From an uncultured Planctomycetales bacterium (lineage in GTDB: Bacteria > Omnitrophota > Gorgyraeia > Gygaellales > Profunditerraquicolaceae): a stretch of DNA of 64,000 nucleotides. Under the pieces are notes generated by a model, which was given only the letters and a program-made list of their open reading frames with translations, searched no databases and was not told the DNA's origin. The position numbers were made by a program, and so were the translations under genes. This document shows positions 22,094 to 32,268 of this stretch, piece by piece; the stretch's first letter is position 1; every line of letters begins with the position of its first letter. The DNA lies in assembly GCA_964645795.1 (NCBI GenBank), contig CAZYCL010000002.1, positions 16,352 to 80,351 of the forward strand, given 5' to 3'.

Positions 22094-22870
22094 CTATCTG
22101 GTCAAAAGCCTCTTCTGGACCTTCTCGATGAAGTTATCGATCGCCTTATTTTTGGGGTCAAGCAGGTGCGCATCGATAGCCTGACTTAAAGCCTTTACCT
22201 CTTCTCCTTTTTTGAAGCTTTCCTTTGCCATGGTAAAGAGGTCCCTGGACTGCTCATGCGTATCCTTTCGCAGCACCTCTTTCTTCTGCTCGACTTCGCG
22301 TATCAGCCCCAGGACCTGCCTTTCCTTGCTTTCTTCCGGGCTGACAGATGTAATCAACCCTATATCGACGCATCTGGCCCTGGCCTTCTCGGTCCAGGGG
22401 TCATTGGCTAAGCCAAGGTCGGCTCTTTTCTTCCAATAATATGCCGCCTTGTCCAGGTCGCGTTTAGTCTCGTAGAAAAGCGCAAGGTTTGAGTAGGCGC
22501 TTAGGAAATTCGGGTCCGTCTTTATCGACTGCAGATATGAGTTTTCCGCGCGCTCTAACTCTCCGTTAGCCTCATAGATGATACCCAGGTCATTATAAGC
22601 TATTGCGTAGGCCGGATCAAGCTCTACCGCTTTCTGATAATAGGCCAGGGCCTTGCGCAGATCTCCCAGATTCTGAACCTGGAGCCCCTGCTGCCGGTAA
22701 ATCCTGGCCTGCTCCTGCTGCATCGAAAGCTGCGGCTCGCTCCTGTCCGTTTTTGTGCCGCCGGCAACGGCCTCGGCAGAAAACAGAAAAAAGAAGATCA
22801 GCGGCGCATATCCGCAGGCAAATAATGAAGTTATAAATTTTGTTTTCTTGGGGAGGGGCGGAATGAACAT
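22094..22870 (-). CDS. TPR-repeat protein with an N-terminal signal or lipoprotein-like sequence
   Basis: Hydrophobic N-terminus with a Cys (LFACGY) followed by several 34-aa TPR units (AYYQKAVELDPAYAIAYNDLGIIY...). Confidence 0.7.
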   Translation of the reverse strand: MFIPPLPKKTKFITSLFACGYAPLIFFFLFSAEAVAGGTKTDRSEPQLSMQQEQARIYRQQGLQVQNLGDLRKALAYYQKAVELDPAYAIAYNDLGIIYEANGELERAENSYLQSIKTDPNFLSAYSNLALFYETKRDLDKAAYYWKKRADLGLANDPWTEKARARCVDIGLITSVSPEESKERQVLGLIREVEQKKEVLRKDTHEQSRDLFTMAKESFKKGEEVKALSQAIDAHLLDPKNKAIDNFIEKVQKRLLTR

Positions 22871-22883
22871 TTGTATTGAAATT

Positions 22884-22911
22884 ATTATACTCTAACCGCT
22901 TGTTACGTCAA
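22884..22911 (-). promoter_or_regulatory. Putative sigma70 promoter (TTGACG-16-TATAAT) giving a near-leaderless TPR mRNA; the 6-bp palindrome CGCTTG..CAAGCG overlaps the -35
   Basis: The reverse complement of 22884-22889 is TATAAT and that of 22906-22911 is TTGACG. The ATG at 22870 is only 13 nt after the -10. Confidence 0.3.
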
Positions 22912-22933: not shown

Positions 22934-23848
22934 TTATCTGGCTTCAAGGCCTTGCACGCAATCTATGACTGAACCATCTTTCCTGAATCCGAGCCGGTAC
23001 GCTGCCACTTTTGAGGCGATTTGCGAACAAAGAACGACTTGCTTGGCCAGCCTTTCCCTGTCCCAGAAGGCCGCAAAGATATACGAAGAAAGCGTTCTGA
23101 AGGCGCAAGCCGCAGGAACTCCGGTGATCCTGTTTTTGCGGCAATGGTAAATGAAAAAGATCTTTTTAAGAAGGGCGCTGCCGGTTATGGATGCGGAGTA
23201 ATCGCTGAAGTTGCCGTGCCAGGGCGTGCCGTGCATAAGAAATCCGCCCTTGCCTGCGGTGATCAGCACGCGGTCGTCGTTAAAAACGCGGGCATTCGAA
23301 GACCTCCCCCATATACCGGCGATGGTAGATTTGCCTGCCCCGGAACGGCCGCAGAAGATCATGCCGCTGGCTTTCTTTTTGTCTATCCCGGCGCAGTGCA
23401 CGATCACTCCGCCCCTATCCGCATAATAACCGATGAGCATGATATGGATGCAATCGTAAATGAGGTCTTCGCACGACCAACCAAAGCGTTTTTTACCGCC
23501 GTCCATATAAACCGCGGCCTTCCTGTAATCCGGGGTTAAGACCATCACCTTCTTCCTGGCGGCAAGGCGCTGCCGGAAGATAAAATACCCGTCTTTTTTG
23601 AATGCCTGCCAAGCGGTCTTGTCCCTTAAAGGATGGATAGTGGTAAACACGGGTTTAGCGCCTTTAAGCAGGTCTGACGGCAGGTCGCTCTTGGGCATTA
23701 TCCGCATACTGCACTGCGAAGGCTGGCGCCCCCGGTAAATAAAGCGCGGGTACTTGAGGAAAGCCGGCGCATCTTTGATGTCGGAGCGGGCACGCTCGCT
23801 CTCCAGCCGCAACACAACATCCCCGATCTTAAGCCTTACTGTTTTCAC
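22934..23848 (-). CDS. HprK-fold P-loop kinase-like protein, last gene of the peptide-maturation operon
   Basis: P-loop GRSGAGKST preceded by GVIVHCAG and followed by NDDRVLI, matching the arrangement of the HPr kinase C-terminal domain. The start is set at a GTG that overlaps the upstream TGA as GTGA. An alternative ATG at 23944 would overlap rSAM-3 by 100 nt. Confidence 0.6.
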   Translation of the reverse strand: MKTVRLKIGDVVLRLESERARSDIKDAPAFLKYPRFIYRGRQPSQCSMRIMPKSDLPSDLLKGAKPVFTTIHPLRDKTAWQAFKKDGYFIFRQRLAARKKVMVLTPDYRKAAVYMDGGKKRFGWSCEDLIYDCIHIMLIGYYADRGGVIVHCAGIDKKKASGMIFCGRSGAGKSTIAGIWGRSSNARVFNDDRVLITAGKGGFLMHGTPWHGNFSDYSASITGSALLKKIFFIYHCRKNRITGVPAACAFRTLSSYIFAAFWDRERLAKQVVLCSQIASKVAAYRLGFRKDGSVIDCVQGLEAR

Positions 23849-24894
23849 GATGCCGTCCTTTGCGCGCAGGCCTGCGCCAGATCGCAATAATAGGCAACCG
23901 CTTTGTGCATATCGCCGCTCTCCAGAAGCGCCCTTCCCGGACAACGCCTGCAGCTATCCAGAAACTGGCAGGGCGCGCACGGTGAATCTTTTCTAAAATC
24001 CTGGCTGATAAGCCGGCTCAACGCCCTCATCCCTTTTTCAATCCCGTACCTGCCCAGATCGAAGCTGGGGGTTCTCACGGCAGTGCAGAGAAACATCCTG
24101 CCGCAGGGATCTACGCCAAAGCCGTCTCTTGCGGCATTGCACCTGAATAGCCTGCGGTTGCGGCCTTTGGGAGCTTGGTTTGCGCCCCTGCAAAACTCCG
24201 TATCCAGGCCCAATGAACCGTCCAAGCGGATTAAACTCGACGCATCCAGGCGGAGCGCGCAGACAGAGCTGTCGCGGTCAAGACGCGGCAAGATCAATGA
24301 CGATACCTGGTAGCCACAGCCGAGGCCGGCGGCAAAACTTTTGATCCGGTTCAACTCCTGATGGTTATCCTTTAACGCCATGCTTTTTATCTTAAAAGCG
24401 ATACCCGAAGCTTTAAGCATCCCGATCGAAGCCATGACCCTTTTGAGCACTCCCCGCCCGCCGGATATCCGGTCCAGCTTATGCGGATCAAGGCTGTTAA
24501 GCGTCAGCTCCACGCAAAAAGGCTTATGCATCTCTAAGACCCCGATCACCTCTTTATCGATAAGCATGCCGCTGGTGAATACCGTAATGATAAAACCCTT
24601 GCTGTGGGCATAAGCATAAATATCCGCAAAGTCGCTTCTGGCTAAAGGGTCTCCGCCGGTAAGGCCCAGCCAGAGTATGCCGTAATCATAAAGCTTATCC
24701 AGGACGGCGAACACCTTCTTTGTGGAAAGCTGGCGCCTTATAAATTGCCTGCGGTTGTAACAGTCGCTGTAACAATACCGGCAGTGCAGCGGGCAGGCAA
24801 AGGTCAGCTCAAACTGGCAGAGGGCCGGCCGCCCAAGCCTGCGGCTTGCCTTATGCGCCTGAAAGCTGAAATCTTTATACTCGAGATTGCGCAT
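23845..24894 (-). CDS. Radical SAM/SPASM-domain peptide-modifying enzyme, paralog 3
   Basis: CPLHCRYC (CxxxCxxC) near the N-terminus and a Cys-rich C-terminal SPASM region (CNAARDGFGVDPCGRMFLC...CAPCQFLDSCRRCPGRA). The start is set at the MRNLEYKDF Met, homologous to the starts of the two paralogs. Confidence 0.8.
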   Translation of the reverse strand: MRNLEYKDFSFQAHKASRRLGRPALCQFELTFACPLHCRYCYSDCYNRRQFIRRQLSTKKVFAVLDKLYDYGILWLGLTGGDPLARSDFADIYAYAHSKGFIITVFTSGMLIDKEVIGVLEMHKPFCVELTLNSLDPHKLDRISGGRGVLKRVMASIGMLKASGIAFKIKSMALKDNHQELNRIKSFAAGLGCGYQVSSLILPRLDRDSSVCALRLDASSLIRLDGSLGLDTEFCRGANQAPKGRNRRLFRCNAARDGFGVDPCGRMFLCTAVRTPSFDLGRYGIEKGMRALSRLISQDFRKDSPCAPCQFLDSCRRCPGRALLESGDMHKAVAYYCDLAQACAQRTAS

Positions 24895-25972
24895 CTTTCT
24901 TCTTGCGGACAAGGTCCCTGGTAAACTGCGCCTGCTTACGGTAATACGGGTCGCAGCTGAAAAAACTGCCGTCATTAAGGTAGGCCCTGGCCGGACACCA
25001 GCAGCAGTAATCGAATACATCGCAGCTCAAACACTCCCAATCAACAGGCGGTTTTATGCGGTCACAAGAAGCCTTGAGCTCCTGCCATCCGGCGGCAAGC
25101 CCTCCCCGCAGTATATCGTAGCCCGGATAATCTATCTGAGTACAAAAGTTCATCCTGCCGCAGGCATCCACGCTAAAATGCGATTGCGCCACGCCGCAGT
25201 TAAAGATGCTTTCTTTGAACCTGCGCCTTGACACAACCGGCCCGTTCTTTTTGCCTGTGCCCGGATTATTGAACATTTCCGGATAGCAGGCCCGGCGCAA
25301 TAAATAGCTCTCTTTGGGCGAAAGCATCCGGCGCATATGCGTCTTTGAACCGTCCAGGCGCGGCAAGAGCTCATTATCCAGGCGATAAATCACGCCGAGC
25401 TTGCGGGCAAAGGCGTTGACCTTGGGTATCTGGGATACATTATCCTGCATGCCGCAGGATTTTAGGGAAAAAGGCACCTTGTTCCTGCGCAATAATCTTA
25501 TGGCCCTGAAGACCTTTTCCGCCGAGCCCCTGACCCCGCTTATCGAATCAAATATTTTTTCATCCATCGCATGGACCGTTATGTCGACCTTATTCAAAGA
25601 TAACCTGCCCAGGGCCGCAGCCGTCTTTTCATCGATGAGCGAGGCATTGGTCAGGACGATCGTCTGCAAACCCAGCCTTTTGGAGTAATCGAGTATATCG
25701 AAGATATCTTTTCGTAAAAAAACCTCTCCCCCGGTAAATCCGACAAAGATGACCCCGATATCCCTCATCTGTTCCAATATAGAAAATACCTGCCGCCCGG
25801 AAAGCTCTTTGCCGGCCTTTAGAGACCTTCTTTCCGGAGGCAGGTAACAATGGAGGCATTGGAAGTTGCAGCGGTAGGTCAGCTCAAAGGCCGCCCTCAA
25901 CGGCAGCCTTTGCTCTAGCGAGACGCTCGATAGGCCCCTTACAAACTCCTTATAATCAAGCTCTTTTATCAT
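24875..25972 (-). CDS. Radical SAM/SPASM-domain peptide-modifying enzyme, paralog 2
   Basis: CNFQCLHC motif and SPASM cysteines (CGVAQSHFSVDACGRMNFC...CLSCDVFDYCCWCPARA). It overlaps paralog 3 by 20 nt. Confidence 0.8.
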   Translation of the reverse strand: MIKELDYKEFVRGLSSVSLEQRLPLRAAFELTYRCNFQCLHCYLPPERRSLKAGKELSGRQVFSILEQMRDIGVIFVGFTGGEVFLRKDIFDILDYSKRLGLQTIVLTNASLIDEKTAAALGRLSLNKVDITVHAMDEKIFDSISGVRGSAEKVFRAIRLLRRNKVPFSLKSCGMQDNVSQIPKVNAFARKLGVIYRLDNELLPRLDGSKTHMRRMLSPKESYLLRRACYPEMFNNPGTGKKNGPVVSRRRFKESIFNCGVAQSHFSVDACGRMNFCTQIDYPGYDILRGGLAAGWQELKASCDRIKPPVDWECLSCDVFDYCCWCPARAYLNDGSFFSCDPYYRKQAQFTRDLVRKKKDAQSRV

Positions 25973-27039
25973 TATCCTTTTAGGTCCAAACCCGAAAGCT
26001 GCCTCTTTCTGGCCTTAGCCAGGCGGCAGTAGTAGGGCACCGGCGCATGGTTATCTGCGGTCTCCAGATACGCGCGCTCAGGGCACCAACTGCAGTAAAC
26101 CCGCAGCCTGCAGCCTGAGCATTTTGACGCCTTGCGAAAAACCTCTTGGCTTAATCCTGCCAATTTTTTATAAAAAGCCCGCTTAAAGCCTGTCTTTAGC
26201 AGGCTTGATGAACGCTTGGAGCTTATATTGCAGAACTGCAGCCTGCCGTCGGGAGTCAGGAAGAACGAATACTGCCAGCTGTTGCAAAAGTACAGGAACC
26301 TGCCGGGCCTGGACCTTTTGCGTATCTGATGGCTGCTCTCGAGTAACTGCTTGCACATCTGGGCATCTTTTTCTTCTATAGAAATTATCTCTTTGGGCTC
26401 CAGCCTCCACAGGCAAGGCGTTTTATCTCGGTTAAGGCGCGGGAAAACAAATGCATCGAATTTGAACCTCCCCTTTCCCAAAAGCTTTTCGCTGAAAGCC
26501 TTAAGCCTGAGAACGTCATCTTTATTATGCTTTAGGCCGATGCATTTTACCACTGCGGGTATCCCTGCCTTTTTCAGGGCACCAAGCGCAGTCACGCTTT
26601 TATTAAACGAGCCACCAACCCCGGTAACCGATTCATGCGTTGCGGCGCTAGAACCGTAGAGGCTCACCTCTACCGCAAAAGGGGGATGCTGCCTGAAAAG
26701 ATCAAGGAGCTCATTGTTTATAAGCGTAGCATTGGTGAAGACCGTGACCAGAAAGCCTTTCTTTAAGGCGTACCTGTAGATGGCCGGGAAATCTTTATGT
26801 AAAAGCGGCTCTCCTCCGCTAAAGGTTAGCCACAGGCAGCCTCCGGACCTTATATCATCGAGGATCTTTTTCCATCGGCCAAACCCCAGCTCCCTCAAAG
26901 ATACCAGCGGCTTACCATGGTCACAGGTAAAACAATGCACGCATTTAAGGTTGCAGCGGTAGGTAAGGTTAAGGGTGGCTTCCAACGCTCCTTTATTCTG
27001 GCAAGCGCAGGCAAACTGGCGGTAGGCTAACTCCTGCAT
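25972..27039 (-). CDS. Radical SAM/SPASM-domain peptide-modifying enzyme, paralog 1
   Basis: CNLKCVHC motif and SPASM cysteines (CNSWQYSFFLTPDGRLQFC...CSGCRLRVYCSWCPERA). Its stop overlaps the paralog-2 start as TAATG. Confidence 0.8.
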   Translation of the reverse strand: MQELAYRQFACACQNKGALEATLNLTYRCNLKCVHCFTCDHGKPLVSLRELGFGRWKKILDDIRSGGCLWLTFSGGEPLLHKDFPAIYRYALKKGFLVTVFTNATLINNELLDLFRQHPPFAVEVSLYGSSAATHESVTGVGGSFNKSVTALGALKKAGIPAVVKCIGLKHNKDDVLRLKAFSEKLLGKGRFKFDAFVFPRLNRDKTPCLWRLEPKEIISIEEKDAQMCKQLLESSHQIRKRSRPGRFLYFCNSWQYSFFLTPDGRLQFCNISSKRSSSLLKTGFKRAFYKKLAGLSQEVFRKASKCSGCRLRVYCSWCPERAYLETADNHAPVPYYCRLAKARKRQLSGLDLKG

Positions 27040-27049
27040 AGGAAAGGTA

Positions 27050-27331
27050 TTAAACCAACGCTTTTATGTCTTTGAGGTCTTTAAGGAAAGGTGTCAGGGA
27101 CGCATCCAGTGTTTCCGGCCCCACCGCGTACTCTCTGAGGATTATCCTTTTTATCGAAAAAATATCCTTTTTCCCGTCGAACAGGCTCCAGATGCGGGCG
27201 CCGACGGCATCGAGGGTGTATATACAGTCTGCGTCTTTTGAGCTCTTATAAAGCGGGACCAGGATCGTTTCCTGTCCGAAAACGCGGGTAACGACCTCCG
27301 GGTTTTTCTTATATATATAGGAGTCTTTCAT
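27050..27331 (-). CDS. PqqD-family peptide chaperone (stand-alone RRE domain)
   Basis: 93 aa with the typical PqqD pattern (...ETILVPL...YTLDAVGARIWSLFDGKKDIFSIKRIILREY...LDASLTPFLKDLKDIKAL). Confidence 0.7.
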   Translation of the reverse strand: MKDSYIYKKNPEVVTRVFGQETILVPLYKSSKDADCIYTLDAVGARIWSLFDGKKDIFSIKRIILREYAVGPETLDASLTPFLKDLKDIKALV

Positions 27332-27361: not shown

Positions 27362-27583
27362 TTAGGTGTTTACCGCGCTTATCGAGCCGCCGGTACCGCA
27401 ATTGTTGATCCAGCACATCGAACCGACAGGATTATTGAATACCGACTTGGTACCGACCGAACAACAGGCCAGGACCGCCTGCTCGGGATTAAGCCTGATC
27501 CTGGTGATCTCTGGATTGCGCCAGGCTTTTTTGGCTGGGGACTTCTGCCTTGCGCTTCGATGACCGCTCTTGCTGGTCGGCAT
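27362..27583 (-). CDS. Candidate RiPP precursor peptide of 73 aa, with a basic PqqA-like leader and a Cys/Gly/Ser-rich C-terminal core
   Basis: The ATG is preceded by AAAGGA-N8. The leader segment KKAWRNPEITRIRLNPEQAV resembles the PqqA recognition motif W-x-x-P-x-h-x-x-h-R-L-x-x-E. The core is CCSVGTKSVFNNPVGSMCWINNCGTGGSISAVNT. The gene lies 30 nt upstream of the PqqD gene. Confidence 0.5.
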   Translation of the reverse strand: MPTSKSGHRSARQKSPAKKAWRNPEITRIRLNPEQAVLACCSVGTKSVFNNPVGSMCWINNCGTGGSISAVNT

Positions 27584-27624: not shown

Positions 27625-27653
27625 ATTTTAATGTATGGCCAAATAAAGGTCAA
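27625..27653 (-). promoter_or_regulatory. Near-consensus sigma70 promoter (TTGACC-17-TAAAAT) driving the precursor/PqqD/rSAM/kinase operon
   Basis: The reverse complement of 27648-27653 is TTGACC and that of 27625-27630 is TAAAAT, with an exact 17-nt spacer. The precursor ATG is about 40 nt downstream. Confidence 0.45.
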
Positions 27654-27660
27654 GTATAAA

Positions 27661-29847
27661 TTATAGCAGCGGCGGCATCTGGAGCGCCGGATGTTTTACT
27701 TTTTCAAGGTATGTCAGAAGCCCGCTGGATGTGGTAGCCACCGTCTCATCGGCAATGCGCTCCAGCAGGTCCGGTACGCCTTCTTCCTGGCAGCGCTTCT
27801 TGAGCTTATCGGACAAGACCTCTTTTAGCTCTTTAGGCATCCAGACCACGCGCCTCAAGCCTCCCTCTGCCCGGATGAACTTCTTGCTTACTACATAAAG
27901 CTTTCCCACCCCCAGGAACCCCGGCGTTTGCACGCCTCCGCCGACCGAACCGGCAAGAGTGGTAAAATTCATACCGCAGGGGGTCATGCCTACGTAGTCG
28001 CGGTTGACCACGATCACCCCGTTAGCTTCGGGTATTATCGCCACAATGCACTCAAAGCAGCCGCATGAAGACTGGGGTCCTTCCATCATCGAATACATGC
28101 TGACCTGCTCTACGGTCTTGTTGGATTTGGAGTAGATAAACTCATCTATGCTCTTCCATTCTCCGATGCGCTCATCGACCAGCCCGTTTTTGATTATCGG
28201 CTGGTTCGGGCCGGTAGGCATGATCTCAAATGATGCCTTGGCGTCAAGCCATGAGTAGGCCCCGCAAAGCCCCAGCCTTTCCGGGGTAATAATGCAGACA
28301 TGATTCGGGGCGAACGACTGGCACAAGAGGCATGAGTAAAAAGTATCGACGCTCTCGTCGGTCATCCCGGCCAGGCGCTCATCCCGCTCATCATAGGAGA
28401 GCTTGGCCTTCTCCAGCAGCTTCTGGACATCCTCCTTGCCGGTATATAGCTTGACCTGCACCTTATCGACGATACTGCCGTACTCCTGATGGAGCATTGC
28501 ATGAAGGATCACCCCGATATGCTTGAGGCGAAAGCCCTTGGCAAAGGCGTCCTTGGAGATCCTTATCCAGTTCATGTCGCGCTGGCCTACGTGCATAATG
28601 CCCATGGCGTAGTTGATAAAACGGTGGATCTGCCTTTCCAGTATGGGCTCGAAATCCTTCTGGGTCTTCCTGCCTGCCACCTCGACGATTATGGCCAGGG
28701 GCATGGACTTTTTTCCCGGCGCCAACTTATCGATATCTGGCCCTATGATCTCTATCTTGGCGTCATCGACTTCATTTAGCTGGCGGCAGTAGAGGTATTC
28801 GAAAGAAAGCTCGCCCTTCCCGCCGAATTCGACATAGAGCTGTTCTTTCCTCACCCTCTCGCCTTCGAATGCGGCCGCGTATGATACCGGGACATCGATG
28901 TTGGCGACTTTTACCTTCAGACCCCGCACCTCGATGCACTTGGCGGCAAGCTTGCCGTAATCCTTTTCGACAACCAATGCCTCGTATGAAGTAGTTTCGA
29001 TCTTCGCCAGCTCCGGCACATCCAGGTCCGATATGATCGGAAAACCCAGGGCCAGCGCCCCTAATCCCGTGGCCACGATCACCTCATCGACGTGGCTTAA
29101 AAGCACTACAAACGCCGGAACCTTTTGACGGCTATACTCCAGGATCCTGGCCCACTCTCCGCTCTTAAGCCCTCCATACATCAGCGGCGCTCTTATCGCC
29201 CAGTTGACCGCGTATATCGCCGAAAGGTAGTCTTGGCCGAGAGGCACGATATAATTTTCCAGCCCCATCTCCACTTTCTGGTCTTCCAGCTGCTTCTTAA
29301 GGCTCAAGCCGTCTTTGCTCCCGGCCAAAAGACAGACAATGCTCCTGGCCTGAAAATCCCGCACAAGCCTTACTGCCGAATCCGCATCTTTGGCCGGACC
29401 AAGGATCACCGCGATACCGGCGATGCGTCCGTCTACCAGCTGGATACCCAGAGACCGCAGCAGCGTATCCGACAAGAACCCTGCGCAGCCCTCCTGCGGG
29501 TGGCGTTTTTGCGCATACTCCAGCGCCGCCAGGAGCTCTTCGCACAAAAGCGTTGCCAGCCCTTTGTTAAGCATGCCCGAGAGGGCACCCAGATATAATC
29601 CGTTTGAAGCAGGTTTATTCGAAGATAATTTTTTTGCGTCATCCAGGATCCCGCGGCAATCGCCGAGGCTCCTGGCTTCTCTGTGCAAAAGGGCGTCGGC
29701 CAAAGGCAGGTAGTAATTGGTCTGATCGAAGCTCAAGGGGTCTTGGCCGCCTTTCTCTTTTATGCGCCTATCCAGCGCATCTTCGGTAAGGCCCAATATC
29801 GCCTCTGCCCCCCTGGTCCCCAGTTGCACTAAGATGTCTGTTGACAT
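27661..29847 (-). CDS. acsB: Acetyl-CoA synthase (CODH/ACS beta subunit, AcsB/CdhC type)
   Basis: 728 aa with extended similarity to ACS, including the A-cluster cysteines (CLLCQSFAPNHVCIITPERLGLCGAYSW and the Cys-Gly-Cys motif SSCGCFEC). Confidence 0.9.
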   Translation of the reverse strand: MSTDILVQLGTRGAEAILGLTEDALDRRIKEKGGQDPLSFDQTNYYLPLADALLHREARSLGDCRGILDDAKKLSSNKPASNGLYLGALSGMLNKGLATLLCEELLAALEYAQKRHPQEGCAGFLSDTLLRSLGIQLVDGRIAGIAVILGPAKDADSAVRLVRDFQARSIVCLLAGSKDGLSLKKQLEDQKVEMGLENYIVPLGQDYLSAIYAVNWAIRAPLMYGGLKSGEWARILEYSRQKVPAFVVLLSHVDEVIVATGLGALALGFPIISDLDVPELAKIETTSYEALVVEKDYGKLAAKCIEVRGLKVKVANIDVPVSYAAAFEGERVRKEQLYVEFGGKGELSFEYLYCRQLNEVDDAKIEIIGPDIDKLAPGKKSMPLAIIVEVAGRKTQKDFEPILERQIHRFINYAMGIMHVGQRDMNWIRISKDAFAKGFRLKHIGVILHAMLHQEYGSIVDKVQVKLYTGKEDVQKLLEKAKLSYDERDERLAGMTDESVDTFYSCLLCQSFAPNHVCIITPERLGLCGAYSWLDAKASFEIMPTGPNQPIIKNGLVDERIGEWKSIDEFIYSKSNKTVEQVSMYSMMEGPQSSCGCFECIVAIIPEANGVIVVNRDYVGMTPCGMNFTTLAGSVGGGVQTPGFLGVGKLYVVSKKFIRAEGGLRRVVWMPKELKEVLSDKLKKRCQEEGVPDLLERIADETVATTSSGLLTYLEKVKHPALQMPPLL

Positions 29848-30746
29848 AACGAGCTTCCCCTTTCGAGGCTGGCGATAAGGTTTTTGGCTACGATGACCCC
29901 TTCATTGCAGGACTCCTCCCAGCTCTTGCTTTCGCCCAGCTTATCCTCCAGGCAACAGACGCTGCCGCAGGCAAAAATGTTATCGAGATTGGTATGCATG
30001 AGCTCATCCACGATGATGTAACCGTCTTCAGCCCTGATCTGCGAGTCTTTCAGGAATTCAGTGCAGGGCTTATAGTTGCCGGCAAAAAGTATTAGGCTGG
30101 CTTCTATGGCCTTGCCGCTGGATAGCTTGTAAGCTTTTAACTCCGCCCCCTCCCCGATGATCTCGGTAAGAGTGGAATCGGCAATCCACTCGGAGTTCTG
30201 CGGCAGCTCTACGTCGGCCGGTTTGGGGGAAGCGATCACCTTTATGTGTTTGCCCGTCTTCGATATCGCCTCATGGAAGCCGAGGGCGGTCCCGGAGTCG
30301 GCGATAATGCAGACTGAGTCGATTATCTGCAGCCTCTCCCTCACAGCCTCAAACTGTTCCAGATTATATAAGGTAAAAACGCCGTTCTTGGTCTTGCCGG
30401 GGATATCGGGCAGGATGGTCTTACGGCCCGAAGCGATGATCAGAAAATCGTAGCTGATCCTGGTGTTATCCTTAAGGCAGACCCTTTGTTTATGCTCTTC
30501 GATACGGCTGACAGATGCGCCTTTTACCAGCTCTATATTGTTATCCCTGTAAAAAACCTCTTCGCAAAGAAAGAGGCCTTTTTCTTCAACAGAACCCCTT
30601 AAAAAATCCAGCAATAAACACTTGTTGTAAGGCAGGCAGTTTTCCTGCGTGAGCACCGTGATCTTGGCTGCTGCGGAAGAGGCGGCCAAGGTCTTGGCTG
30701 CCGAGAAACCGGCGGCGGAGTTTCCGATGATGAGTATTCTGTTCAT
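29829..30746 (-). CDS. FAD-dependent pyridine-nucleotide-disulfide-oxidoreductase-family protein (short, two-domain)
   Basis: N-terminal dinucleotide-binding motif ILIIGNSAAGFSAA and a second Rossmann motif VCIIADSGTALGF; 305 aa. Confidence 0.7.
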   Translation of the reverse strand: MNRILIIGNSAAGFSAAKTLAASSAAAKITVLTQENCLPYNKCLLLDFLRGSVEEKGLFLCEEVFYRDNNIELVKGASVSRIEEHKQRVCLKDNTRISYDFLIIASGRKTILPDIPGKTKNGVFTLYNLEQFEAVRERLQIIDSVCIIADSGTALGFHEAISKTGKHIKVIASPKPADVELPQNSEWIADSTLTEIIGEGAELKAYKLSSGKAIEASLILFAGNYKPCTEFLKDSQIRAEDGYIIVDELMHTNLDNIFACGSVCCLEDKLGESKSWEESCNEGVIVAKNLIASLERGSSLCQQTS

Positions 30747-30751
30747 GTTTT

Positions 30752-31621
30752 CTACAGGCCCGCGGCGTCCAGCACCAGGGGCACGTTTTTATTCCAACCG
30801 ATAGGCATGATGTGTATGCCCTGGCACAAAGGCCTGAACTGCCTGATAAGACGGCTGGCGATATCCACGGACCTGGCGACCTTATCCTGCGCCGACTCCA
30901 TCTCCCGGATAAGCCTCTCCGGCACGGTTATACCGGCGACGTTCTTGTTGACGAACCGCGCCATGGAGGCGGACTTTAAAAGAAGCACCCCGGCAAAAAC
31001 CTTGACCTTGAGATGCCGAATCTTGTTCATGAAAATCTCCAGGACCTCCGGTTCAAATACGGCCTGGGTTTGAAAGAACTCCGCTCCCGCGGCAACTTTC
31101 TTTTCCATTTTGATGATCTGCGGCTCCAAGGGCTCTGAGCCGGGGTTGACCACCGCCCCTACGCAGAACTTAGGCGCAATGCCCTCCAGCTTGTTGCCGT
31201 TCATGTCCCGGCCTTCCTGGATCATTTTTACAACCTGAAGCAGCTGCACGGAATCAAGATCAAAAACGGGCTTGGCCTGGGGATGGTCGCCGAGCATCGG
31301 ATGATCTCCGGTAAGTATAAGCAGGTTCTCGATGCCCATGGCCGCGGCGGACAATATATCCGACTGCAGCGCCAGGCGGTTGCGGTCGCGGCAGGCCAGC
31401 TGATATATCGGCTCCAGCCCTCTCTGTTTAAGGAGTGCGCTTACGGCAAACGAACCCATGCGCATCACCGAGCTCTGAAGCTCGGTGACGTTAATAGCGT
31501 CAACCCTGTCACGCAGAAGCTCGGCTTCTGCCAACACCAAAGACGGGTCGCTGCCCTTTGGCGGACCGATCTCGCAGGTAACGATGAAATCGCCCGACTT
31601 TATTCTTTCTTTGAATGTCAT
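30752..31621 (-). CDS. metF: Methylenetetrahydrofolate reductase
   Basis: MTHFR TIM-barrel signatures (FIVTCEIGPPKG, ILTGDHP). The start is set at MTFKERIKSG; the longest ORF reaches 31786. Confidence 0.8.
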   Translation of the reverse strand: MTFKERIKSGDFIVTCEIGPPKGSDPSLVLAEAELLRDRVDAINVTELQSSVMRMGSFAVSALLKQRGLEPIYQLACRDRNRLALQSDILSAAAMGIENLLILTGDHPMLGDHPQAKPVFDLDSVQLLQVVKMIQEGRDMNGNKLEGIAPKFCVGAVVNPGSEPLEPQIIKMEKKVAAGAEFFQTQAVFEPEVLEIFMNKIRHLKVKVFAGVLLLKSASMARFVNKNVAGITVPERLIREMESAQDKVARSVDIASRLIRQFRPLCQGIHIMPIGWNKNVPLVLDAAGL

Positions 31622-32268
31622 TGCGGCTGCGCGGCTATATTCTGACCTTGGTTGATCCTTGCCGATAATAACCTGTAGGCGTAAGCCTGGGCTACCATAG
31701 TCAGCGGTATGGTAATAAGCATCCCCAGCATAAGGGCCAGGAGCCCGGCGATATTTAGAAGCATAATGACCAGATACAGCACACAAAGCTGGCCCTTAAA
31801 ACCACTGGTAAGGACGCTGCTTTTCTTCAACGCTTCGATCGGCCCGGCTTCCTTATCTACCACCAGATAAGCGCTGAGGCTGAATTTTATGCCCCAGACA
31901 ATCCCGGGAACTATCAACAAAAATAATCCCAGTATCGTGATCAAACCCACCAGCAGCGAGGCAGCGAAGAATTTAAAGAATAGGCGCGCATGCATATAAA
32001 GGTCTTCCACTCTGACCTCTTGTGCGTCGTGAAGCTTGAGCGCTATCTTGATCAACCCGATCTGCATGACCATGCTCACCGCATACGAGAATAGCGCGAC
32101 TACCAGGCCTACCGGCTGACGGCCCTCGGACATCTTCTGCAGTATATAGGTCACCACCTCTACCGAGGCATAAACAAGTATCGTTCCCAGGACAATCGCC
32201 AGATTACCCCTGACCCTTGCCCAGGCAAAACTCAAAGCCTCGCCCACACGGATAACCTTTTCTTGCAT
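31618..32268 (-). CDS. Integral membrane protein of unknown function (6 predicted TM helices)
   Basis: 216 aa, strongly hydrophobic with repeated TM segments; no catalytic motif recognised. Confidence 0.5.
   Translation of the reverse strand: MQEKVIRVGEALSFAWARVRGNLAIVLGTILVYASVEVVTYILQKMSEGRQPVGLVVALFSYAVSMVMQIGLIKIALKLHDAQEVRVEDLYMHARLFFKFFAASLLVGLITILGLFLLIVPGIVWGIKFSLSAYLVVDKEAGPIEALKKSSVLTSGFKGQLCVLYLVIMLLNIAGLLALMLGMLITIPLTMVAQAYAYRLLSARINQGQNIAAQPQ

Follow-up and report, generated by a model that had tools for sequence, protein, structure and literature searches.

Phosphorylation is rare in RiPPs, where the only documented cases are a few lasso peptides, the linear polyphosphorylated peptides (LPPs), cyanobactins and a small number of others (PMC12639078). 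HprK-like kinases are known experimentally in the lasso-peptide and LPP pathways (PMC6993621, PMC13381572), and the core set of LPP and paeninodin-type clusters includes a discrete peptide-binding protein together with an HprK-like kinase (PMC13381572). PsmK and, reportedly, PadeK phosphorylate the C-terminal serine of lasso precursors (PMC6993621). PsmK D158A/D159A is inactive; D158 and D159 form the predicted metal site and are equivalent to Asp191 and Asp192 of the protein described below (PMC6993621). LppK, the kinase of the LPP systems, phosphorylates Ser3 of the core and not the C-terminal residue (PMC13381572), so that the target position is not fixed within the class of HprK-like RiPP kinases.

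A further system with the same logic as the locus considered here is the SynChlorMet cassette, which combines the P-loop protein ScmC with ScmD (PqqD-like) and ScmE/ScmF (radical-SAM/SPASM). No function of ScmC has been published in the literature searched, which likewise contained no biochemical data on any ScmC-like protein; searches for literature linking HPr kinase or HprK with radical SAM, SPASM or PqqD returned nothing relevant. Here we present the features of an ScmC-like protein encoded in a 64-kb stretch of Omnitrophota DNA (the whole of the sequence analysed, hereafter the window), together with its gene cluster, its relatives and a proposed role.

Gene, start codon and cluster

The ScmC-like gene is located on the minus strand with its stop end at 22934, as given in a preliminary description of this DNA, and the stretch quoted there, GGVIVHCAGIDKKKASGMIFCGRSGAGKST...NDDRVLI, is found in its translation. 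Two starts had been proposed. The GTG at 23848-23846 overlaps the TGA (23847-23845, GTGA) of the upstream radical-SAM gene and yields a product of 304 aa with the first residues VKTVRLKIG; the longer form would create a 100-nt out-of-frame overlap with the same radical-SAM gene. These readings agree with the preliminary description, with the exception of the ATG placed at 23944, where the codon reads TTG. The start, which had been called ambiguous, is less so, because homologue N-termini, a Shine-Dalgarno-like AAGGA and public gene calls all favour the GTG. In 19 homologues (289-336 aa), the N-terminus falls at most a few residues away from the GTG position, the 32-aa N-terminal extension of the longer form is unconserved among homologues, and the exact 304-aa protein has already been called in public data (P0001). 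On inspection of the sequence, AAGGA (23860-23856) lies 7 nt 5' of the GTG, with nothing comparable 5' of the TTG.

The gene is the last in a cluster for radical-SAM peptide modification that also contains a precursor peptide and a PqqD protein (Table 1). Its placement as the terminal gene of the operon is plausible, given the 63-nt gap with a near-consensus promoter-like site that precedes the TPR gene; the gap showed no terminator-like site. The leader of the precursor, ...KKAWRNPEITRIRLNPEQAVL, carries a WxxPxI motif (W-R-N-P-E-I), and the core contains 4 Cys and 8 Ser/Thr and ends in ...SISAVNT, with Thr73 as the C-terminal residue. The precursor is a member of the peptide family that is found beside ScmC-like genes in most sampled loci. 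The best NCBIfam match of the PqqD protein was the lasso peptide PqqD chaperone (2.7e-5, under the cut-off), radical SAM enzyme 1 yielded broad sub-threshold NCBIfam matches to SPASM maturases, and the longest ORF of radical SAM enzyme 3 extends to 25020 (391 aa).

Neither a signal peptidase nor an NTP_transf_5 protein nor an ABC exporter was found within the 64-kb window, and the GC content shows no foreign-island signature. The TPR gene is an uncertain member of the cluster; where TPR proteins share an operon with PqqD at other Omnitrophota loci, they are fusions with UPF0489 (~500 aa) and thus differ in architecture from the 258-aa protein. The cluster abuts acetyl-CoA-pathway genes both in the window and in the related locus L005.

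Table 1. Positions of the cluster genes, codons and candidate signals in the window
Feature	Coordinates	Strand	Basis and remarks
Promoter-like site TTGACC-17-TAAAAT	27625..27653	-	Consensus scan, pattern match only; gap between ACS/CODH gene and precursor gene; candidate operon promoter
Precursor peptide, 73 aa	27362..27583	-	ORF; conserved in L005
PqqD-family peptide-binding protein (RiPP recognition element), 93 aa	27050..27331	-	Pfam PqqD 3e-10
Radical SAM/SPASM-type enzyme 1, 355 aa	25972..27039	-	Pfam Radical_SAM 5e-20
Radical SAM/SPASM-type enzyme 2, 365 aa	24875..25972	-	Pfam Radical_SAM 1.6e-20
Radical SAM/SPASM-type enzyme 3, 349 aa (public call)	23845..24894	-	TGA overlaps GTG of ScmC-like gene
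Shine-Dalgarno-like AAGGA	23856..23860	-	Read from sequence; 7 nt upstream of GTG
ScmC-like P-loop protein, 304 aa, predicted PEPCK/HprK-type fold	22934..23848	-	ORF, profiles, model
His151 codon	23396..23398	-	Invariant; aligns with His before P-loop in HprK/P
P-loop G167-R-S-G-A-G-K173-S-T175	23324..23350	-	Sequence, homologue alignment
Asp191-Asp192-Arg193	23270..23278	-	Aligns with DDR of HprK/P
Promoter-like site TTGACG-16-TATAAT, 11/12	22884..22911	-	Pattern match only; between ScmC-like stop and TPR gene
TPR protein, 258 aa, hydrophobic N-terminus	22094..22870	-	Conserved neighbour in L005

Sequence family and predicted fold

PF27840 ('ScmC') is the Pfam label of P0001 and of 88 of the 93 homologues (a precomputed label), and the family comprises 1,823 clusters (50% identity) at E<=1e-30. 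The preliminary description had called a kinase in a radical-SAM cluster unusual; this was overstated for a catalogued family with thousands of members, most of which, where sampled, adjoin radical-SAM and PqqD genes. Regarding the NCBIfam models, the window protein scored 28.5 bits with TIGR04355, HprK-related kinase B (E 8e-7), and 13.3 bits with TIGR04352, HprK-related kinase A (E 0.03), both against a cut-off of 200 and over residues 139-209 only. The second-best NCBIfam match, the TIGR04249 ScmC equivalog model, gave 27.7 bits (E 1.6e-6) against a cut-off of 125. Taken together, sequence profiles tie the protein weakly to HprK, HprK-related kinase B and ScmC; in the profile comparison that had been suggested as a check, the curated cut-offs were missed, and neither Hpr_kinase_C (PF07475) nor TIGR00679 matched the window protein at E <=0.1. 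Other members of the family scored 20-24 bits at most with TIGR00679 and Hpr_kinase_C, and PEPCK_ATP was also matched weakly. Overall, the similarity to characterised kinases is limited to ~60-70 residues around the P-loop and lies far under the family cut-offs. With TIGR04249, eight relatives scored <=30 bits; because these and the window protein all stay under the cut-off of this model, the profile scores place the ScmC-like protein in a sister group of TIGR04249 ScmC and not among its equivalogs. The window counterparts of ScmD, ScmE and ScmF are also far under their NCBIfam cut-offs.

All of 76 homologues share H151, G167, G172, K173, T175, D191, P209 and W210, and >=90% of them also have D192 and R193, a conservation that, judged from the alignment, is far beyond chance. 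A search of PDB sequences with the ScmC-like protein as a single sequence gave chance matches only; the family profile found HprK/P (1jb1/2qmh) at 1.2e-4, in one stretch spanning the His, the P-loop and the DDR in register. The HprK-type motif arrangement, proposed in the preliminary description from motif spacing, is thereby borne out, with the His...GxSGxGKS...DDR block aligned with that of Lactobacillus casei HprK/P. Differences from HprK/P are found in the N-terminal domain, in the PWHG that follows the DDR block in place of the different signature of HprK/P, and in the context, which is a peptide-modification cluster and not carbon catabolite control.

The protein is composed of a beta-rich N-terminal domain (residues 1-117) and a nucleotide-binding domain (residues 118-304). 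The AF2 model of the whole protein has a pLDDT of 92.3, and that of the C-terminal domain alone 92.4. In a Foldseek comparison of the whole protein with the PDB, the best 50 matches listed were all PEP carboxykinases (best E 1.3e-7, probability 1.00); PEP carboxykinase is the best match over both domains, with a query-normalised TM of ~0.5 and an identity of 10-12%. For the C-terminal domain, the best 50 matches listed were PEP carboxykinases and L. casei HprK/P only (probability 1.00), the latter (1kkl_B) with an E of 9.7e-5 and a TM of 0.45/0.49. TM-scores of the fold matches were moderate overall (0.45-0.56). According to these high-confidence models, the P-loop lies in the fold common to PEPCK and the C-terminal domain of HPr kinase, and the protein is predicted to have a PEP-carboxykinase/HPr-kinase-type fold. 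The likeness to HprK noted earlier holds for the nucleotide-binding domain, but the whole two-domain protein is nearer to ATP-dependent PEP carboxykinase, with which it shares the His...P-loop...Asp-Asp arrangement; PEP carboxykinases differ in their length (>500 aa vs ~300 aa) and in a metabolic context that is absent here. An ABC- or AAA-type NTPase, the unrelated fold against which the kinase reading had originally been set, is rejected: none occurred among the best 50 structural matches listed, and ABC profile matches spanned the P-loop segment only.

Loci and peptides of relatives

In most of the 80 species-level loci, from ~10 phyla, the ScmC-like gene is found on the same strand as, and beside, genes for a PqqD protein, a radical-SAM enzyme and a small peptide rich in Cys; it is adjacent to the radical-SAM gene in most loci. 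The scan used a 16-sequence alignment and one peptide pattern, and the number of relatives (at least 450) is a lower bound. The family occurs in Omnitrophota, Elusimicrobia, Acidobacteriota, Chloroflexota, Deltaproteobacteria and others. A C-terminal Ser or Thr was found in 56 of the 59 unique peptides from phmmer and in 23 of the 23 further HMM peptides (~79/82, background 14%), and the three peptides without it are truncated copies. The leaders carry a lasso-type [Y/W]xxPx[ILV] motif (W-H-D-P-V-V in L005, YxxPx[ILV] in other phyla); a [Y/W]xxPx[LVIFA] leader motif is recognised by the peptide-binding proteins of lasso and LPP systems (PMC13381572).

Many loci of relatives also contain genes for an archaeal-type signal peptidase, an NTP_transf_5 protein and an ABC exporter. 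(Note that the locus counts for the S24-type peptidase and NTP_transf_5 are approximate, as the jackhmmer labels were partly mixed via a fusion-protein seed, and that these identities were confirmed for the scanned representatives only.) The resulting gene set (kinase-like protein, PqqD, signal peptidase, NTP_transf_5 and ABC exporter) is that of the phosphorylated lasso peptides and LPPs; in the pseudomycoidin system, psmN and psmD parallel the NTP_transf_5 and ABC exporter genes.

PadeK/ThcoK (paeninodin) and PsmK (pseudomycoidin) are likewise described as having a P-loop and an Asp-Asp metal site, and their systems also include a discrete PqqD-type protein and a precursor whose leader carries [Y/W]xxP and whose last residue bears a hydroxyl group. 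The lasso kinase systems differ from the window cluster in their lasso cyclase and B2 protease, both absent here, where radical-SAM/SPASM core enzymes are found instead; furthermore, the window precursor ends in Thr, and the HprK-related NCBIfam models reach only 13-29 bits against 200. The LPP systems share the YxxP leader with the peptides of relatives, but are described as restricted to Bacillota, contain no radical-SAM enzyme and have a kinase that targets Ser3 (PMC13381572).

Proposed role, alternatives and significance

We lean towards the ScmC-like protein being a PqqD-guided, ATP-dependent kinase of the C-terminal Thr73 of the precursor, a reading to which we give modest confidence. 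The PqqD protein would bind the WxxPxI leader motif and present the precursor, the three radical-SAM/SPASM enzymes would modify the Cys-rich core, and the ScmC-like enzyme, with the P-loop Lys173 and Ser/Thr174-175, the putatively metal-binding Asp191/Asp192 and His151, would transfer phosphate. The phosphate, possibly more than one, would be placed on the side-chain hydroxyl of Thr73, and Ser would be the target in most relatives. We infer the kinase activity, the target residue, the dependence on PqqD and the order with respect to the radical-SAM steps. Points that count against this reading are the narrow, sub-threshold similarity to characterised kinases, the missing Hpr_kinase_C match of the window protein and the PWHG that follows the DDR block. 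Further such points are that the window cluster is without the peptidase, NTP transferase and exporter of the known systems, that LppK targets Ser3 of the core, and that LppK did not accept Thr for Ser (PMC13381572), whereas the window peptide ends in Thr; the invariant terminal Ser/Thr could instead serve another enzyme of the cluster.

Phosphorylation might also take place elsewhere, on an internal Ser/Thr of the core or on a leader residue, and the terminal Ser/Thr would then be kept for another role, e.g., in export, in recognition by a peptidase or as the acceptor of a radical-SAM crosslink. LppK, with its core Ser3, sets a precedent (PMC13381572), and the cores are rich in Ser/Thr (8 in the window, up to 19 in relatives), but the last residue is the sole Ser/Thr position conserved across ~80 peptides, and the window lineage, which has no exporter or peptidase nearby, has retained the terminal Thr along with the ScmC-like gene, which makes a non-terminal site unlikely.

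Somewhat less probable again is an ATPase that transfers no phosphate to the peptide. It might bind nucleotide and serve as a scaffold or chaperone, holding the precursor for the radical-SAM enzymes, or it might activate the C-terminal carboxylate by forming an acyl phosphate. Phosphotransfer is, however, what the characterised members of the fold catalyse (PEPCK, HprK/P, the kinases of lasso peptides and LPPs), and the conserved His and Asp-Asp go beyond a simple P-loop. The tight coupling to radical-SAM genes (the GTGA overlap and the adjacency in most loci) would suit a scaffold, as would an N-terminal domain without an assigned function, but in some loci (e.g., L047) the ScmC-like gene is accompanied by peptidase, ABC and NTP transferase genes with no radical-SAM gene within 9 kb. 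Carboxylate activation would moreover leave the Ser/Thr requirement unexplained.

The phosphorylated Ser/Thr could also be an intermediate, eliminated to dehydroalanine or dehydrobutyrine and then attacked by Cys or lost to leave a C-terminal amide, the terminal residue being sacrificial. Class II-IV lanthipeptides are formed by phosphorylation followed by elimination, C-terminal amides derived from dehydroalanine are known from thiopeptides, and the cores of the present family are Cys-rich. We nevertheless consider such a transient activation improbable: neither the window cluster nor the set of recurrent neighbours contains a gene recognised as lyase-like, and relatives carry NTP_transf_5, whose homologue PsmN decorates a retained phosphate (PMC6993621).

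A non-peptide substrate, i.e., a PEPCK-like small-molecule kinase or a regulatory-protein kinase/phosphorylase that lies beside the cluster by chance, agrees with the PEP carboxykinases as best structural matches over both domains and with the adjoining acetyl-CoA-pathway genes in the window and L005, but is very improbable for a protein of ~300 aa (>500 aa in PEPCK) whose association with PqqD, radical-SAM enzyme and peptide recurs across ~10 phyla in unrelated surroundings.

With C-terminal phosphorylation by the ScmC-like kinase as the preferred reading, this modification would be new for radical-SAM-type cysteine-rich peptide products; HprK-like RiPP kinases as such are already known. More tentatively, ScmC-like proteins may be the hallmark of a RiPP class that is very widespread but undescribed. 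Its Cys-rich, radical-SAM/SPASM-crosslinked peptides would have an invariant terminal Ser/Thr, phosphorylated by a 'mini-PEPCK' kinase, and many lineages would add phosphate decoration by NTP_transf_5 and leader removal by an archaeal-type signal peptidase. Such a class would be the radical-SAM counterpart of the phosphorylated lasso peptides and LPPs. Its Omnitrophota version, with three radical-SAM enzymes and no exporter, would be a distinct sub-type. Should ScmC-like proteins phosphorylate the C-terminal Ser/Thr, phosphorylation would extend to radical-SAM-modified peptides, and a function would be gained for a catalogued but uncharacterised family of at least 1,800 clusters (50% identity) from many, mostly uncultured phyla. 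The kinase, the peptide-binding protein, the signal peptidase and the NTP transferase would then constitute a portable tailoring module that is combined with at least three core chemistries.

Gene cluster and translation start

The minus-strand ORF ending at 22934 is present in the window and contains the stretch ...GGVIVHCAGIDKKKASGMIFCGRSGAGKSTIAGIWGRSSNARVFNDDRVLI... quoted for it in the preliminary description. The cluster is colinear on the minus strand, with the gene for the precursor (MPTSKSGHRSARQKSPAKKAWRNPEITRIRLNPEQAVLACCSVGTKSVFNNPVGSMCWINNCGTGGSISAVNT) first and the ScmC-like gene last, and the GC content is even throughout the region. That the latter is the terminal gene, as had been proposed, is plausible because a near-consensus promoter-like site separates its stop codon from the downstream TPR gene. 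The PqqD-family protein has the lasso PqqD chaperone as its best NCBIfam match (2.7e-5, sub-threshold).

The start codon had been described as ambiguous between an ATG at 23944 and a GTG. The codon at 23944 is a TTG, which would give a product of 336 aa with the 100-nt out-of-frame overlap claimed for it. The GTG (23848-23846) overlaps the stop codon of the radical-SAM gene before it (TGA, 23847-23845) and gives 304 aa starting with VKTVRLKIG. On sequence evidence the start is effectively resolved as GTG, because the aligned N-termini of 19 homologues (289-336 aa) fall a few residues from VKTVRLKIG, public gene calls on seven contigs contain the identical 304-aa protein (database entry P0001), and an AAGGA motif lies 7 nt ahead of the GTG. 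The 32-residue TTG extension had no counterpart in these 19 homologues, and inspection of the sequence upstream of the TTG found no motif comparable to AAGGA. In locus L005, from a relative with a 45% identical ScmC-like protein, the radical-SAM and ScmC-like genes likewise overlap, by 14 nt.

For the third radical-SAM gene, too, the choice of start is ambiguous: its longest ORF (23845-25020, minus strand) encodes 391 aa from an ATG at 25020, and public calls use the ATG at 24894 (349 aa, 20-nt overlap with the second radical-SAM gene). Directly upstream of the cluster (27661-31786, minus strand; L005 1-4129) lie the Wood-Ljungdahl genes for acetyl-CoA synthase/CODH, a pyridine-nucleotide oxidoreductase and MTHFR; downstream are the TPR gene, polA, glycogen synthase and coaE, and the surrounding gene order is the same in L005. 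The TPR protein (22094-22870, 258 aa) contains no UPF0489 domain, and its N-terminus is hydrophobic and lipobox-like. All long plus-strand ORFs of the window (1-64000) are overlapped by longer minus-strand ORFs; the whole 64 kb is therefore apparently minus-strand coded.

Coordinates of features in the window and in loci of relatives (L numbers)
Feature	Locus	Position	Strand	Remark
Promoter-like site	window	27653-27625	-	pattern match, ahead of precursor gene
Precursor peptide	window	27362-27583	-	73 aa
PqqD-family protein	window	27050-27331	-	Pfam 3e-10
Radical-SAM/SPASM-type enzyme 1	window	25972-27039	-
Radical-SAM/SPASM-type enzyme 2	window	24875-25972	-
Radical-SAM/SPASM-type enzyme 3	window	23845-24894	-
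Shine-Dalgarno-like AAGGA	window	23860-23856	-	7 nt upstream of GTG
ScmC-like gene	window	22934-23848	-
Promoter-like site	window	22911-22884	-	near-consensus, between ScmC-like stop and TPR gene
UPF0489-TPR-type protein	L014	4291-5772
UPF0489-TPR-type protein	L019	27-1451		TPR only
UPF0489-TPR-type protein	L007	5879-7366
UPF0489-TPR-type protein	L011	527-2062
UPF0489-TPR-type protein	L026	3351-4898
Short precursor-like ORF	L008	8920-9051		38-43 aa
Short precursor-like ORF	L011	3615-3731		38-43 aa
Short precursor-like ORF	L013	2576-2692		38-43 aa

Fold and family of the ScmC-like protein

A local Pfam scan of the protein returned a sub-threshold AAA_29 P-loop match only. The suggested comparison with the HprK-related NCBIfam models did yield matches, to kinase B (TIGR04355; E 8e-7, 28.5 bits, cut-off 200) and kinase A (TIGR04352; E 0.03), as well as to SynChlorMet cassette protein ScmC (TIGR04249; E 1.6e-6, 27.7 bits, cut-off 125), but the cut-offs of these three and of the HprK/P models were missed widely. 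Other family members weakly matched TIGR00679 (HPr(Ser) kinase), Pfam Hpr_kinase_C and PEPCK_ATP. In a large protein database the protein and almost all homologues carry the precomputed label PF27840 (family name 'ScmC'), and on that label we count it as a member of this Pfam family. Searched against PDB sequences, a profile of 76 homologues matched Lactobacillus casei HprK/P (1jb1, 2qmh) at E 1.2e-4, aligning the His, the GxSGxGKS P-loop and the DDR block in one stretch; its ABC-transporter matches were limited to the P-loop segment. H151, G167, G172, K173, T175, D191, P209 and W210 are invariant in the 76 homologues, and S169, G170, A171, S174, D192, R193, H211 and G212 are kept in at least 90%.

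An AlphaFold2 model of the whole protein, built from the 76-sequence alignment (pLDDT 92.3, pTM 0.91), gave only PEP carboxykinases among the best 50 PDB matches listed by Foldseek (best E 1.3e-7, query-normalised TM-score about 0.5), with alignments covering both domains. When residues 118-304 were modelled on their own (pLDDT 92.4), the best 50 matches listed were all PEPCK or L. casei HprK/P (1kkl_B: E 9.7e-5, TM 0.45/0.49). PEPCK and the HprK C-terminal domain belong to one fold superfamily. An ABC- or AAA-like NTPase fold, which would have refuted the earlier proposal, is absent from the matches listed, the HprK-like fold proposed earlier stands, and the model places the protein in the PEPCK-like superfamily. 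As a whole it resembles a miniature two-domain PEPCK more than HprK, whose own N-terminal domain differs.

Distribution and neighbouring genes

The profile search of 1.84 billion representatives yielded 1,823 clusters at E≤1e-30 and 10,825 at E≤1e-10, and one peptide pattern alone found at least 450 relatives in GTDB species representatives. The nearest (31-36% identity) are Omnitrophota and Elusimicrobia; remoter ones include Acidobacteriota, Chloroflexota/Anaerolineae, Deltaproteobacteria, Nitrospirae and Verrucomicrobia. ORFs were called in 80 relative loci and searched with the window's proteins: PqqD, radical-SAM, small-peptide and ScmC-like genes share one strand in most, and in the Omnitrophota/Elusimicrobia version three radical-SAM genes accompany one to three peptides. 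The pairing of kinase and radical-SAM enzyme, previously considered unusual, is thus not rare and marks a large, catalogued, uncharacterised cassette family. Recurrent neighbours are a peptidase of about 150 aa (Pfam Peptidase_S24/S26) immediately 3' of the ScmC-like gene (in L085, 54.3 bits to NCBIfam archaeal-type signal peptidase I, cut-off 51.85), NTP_transf_5 (E 1e-31 to 5e-59) and MsbA-type ABC exporters.

In other Omnitrophota and Bdellovibrio loci, UPF0489-TPR fusions of about 500 aa abut or overlap PqqD or precursor genes from immediately upstream and are a possible additional cassette component; UPF0489 was found in four of five, that of L019 having TPR only. In Acidobacteriota, ORFs of 2,000-3,000 aa lie directly 3' of the ScmC-like gene (L071 9512-15850; L074 9854-18837; L076 9512-15823); the one scanned (L071) has DUF11 repeats and a C-terminal Peptidase_C25 domain. 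Fusions (database proteins P0096 and P0152; L047 9685-10905) of GNAT acetyltransferase or SAM methyltransferase with ScmC-like, and of S24 peptidase with GNAT, suggest further tailoring chemistry. Locus L047 has ScmC-like, peptidase-GNAT, ABC and NTP transferase genes, and the 9 kb upstream of it are free of radical-SAM genes. [quoted passage not shown]

Precursor peptides and proposed phosphorylation

In Omnitrophota the precursor leaders follow the pattern K(K/R)xKFKPxITRVKLNPEQAVL, and in other phyla KKPYxKPxhxxVxLRPEEAVL. Behind the leader comes a hypervariable core containing 2-5 Cys; the L005 precursor shares KKAW.DP..TR..LNPEQAVLACC and the terminal SISA.NT with that of the window. A phmmer search gave 59 unique peptides, of which 48 have Ser and 8 have Thr as the last residue (Ser plus Thr at long-ORF C-termini of the same loci, 14%), the other three being truncated copies of 38-43 aa. 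A peptide HMM found 23 more in loci seemingly without one, all ending in Ser or Thr. Apart from the Cys residues, no core position other than this terminal hydroxyl residue is conserved. The short ORFs of L008, L011 and L013, with intact leader, truncated core and no terminal Ser/Thr, are probably decayed extra precursor copies.

Two kinases of the HprK family, PadeK (as described in PMC6993621) and PsmK, phosphorylate the C-terminal Ser of lasso precursors on its side chain, and PsmK polyphosphorylates it. The D158A/D159A variant of PsmK (predicted metal site) is inactive, and a hexose is afterwards attached to the phosphate by the NTP transferase PsmN (PMC6993621). LPP leaders carry the [Y/W]xxPx[LVIFA] motif common to lasso peptides, and LppK polyphosphorylates Ser3 (PMC13381572). 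The corresponding motif is YxxPx[ILV] in ScmC-like cassettes, W-R-N-P-E-I in the window and W-H-D-P-V-V in L005. ScmC-like cassettes share the accessory gene set of both systems and add a radical-SAM/SPASM enzyme, although the peptidase, NTP transferase and exporter of lasso/LPP systems are absent from the window cluster and none was found in the 64 kb or on L005. By analogy of gene context, which agrees in part, the ScmC-like protein may work like these kinases.

The ScmC-like protein is likely to be a peptide-directed phosphotransferase of some kind. The data show the fold, the conserved residues, the gene association and the terminal Ser/Thr rule. We lean towards a full scheme, for which we infer activity, acceptor, step order and PqqD dependence: PqqD would bind the WxxPxI leader, the radical-SAM enzymes would modify the Cys-rich core, and the ScmC-like enzyme would use ATP to phosphorylate C-terminal Thr73 at its hydroxyl, by means of P-loop Lys173 and Thr175, the metal site Asp191/Asp192 and His151. 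SPASM maturases of this sort usually form thioethers. Phosphorylation at a site other than the C-terminal residue is unlikely, and an ATPase, scaffold or carboxylate-activating role a little more so. Less probable again is that the terminal residue is sacrificial, being phosphorylated and then eliminated, and a substrate other than the peptide is highly improbable.

The finding is real and the core of the earlier interpretation holds, with the three corrections to upstream codon, start and rarity. HprK-like proteins in radical-SAM clusters were not described in the literature searched; to our knowledge, the sole earlier description is the bioinformatic naming of the 'SynChlorMet cassette' in TIGRFAMs/NCBIfam. 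What is new here is a putative peptide-tailoring kinase of HprK/PEPCK fold in a radical-SAM context, in a sub-type of Omnitrophota that has three radical-SAM enzymes. Because the C-terminal Ser/Thr is invariant and the cassettes have their gene set in common with LPPs and lasso peptides, a specific and cheap experimental test is possible.
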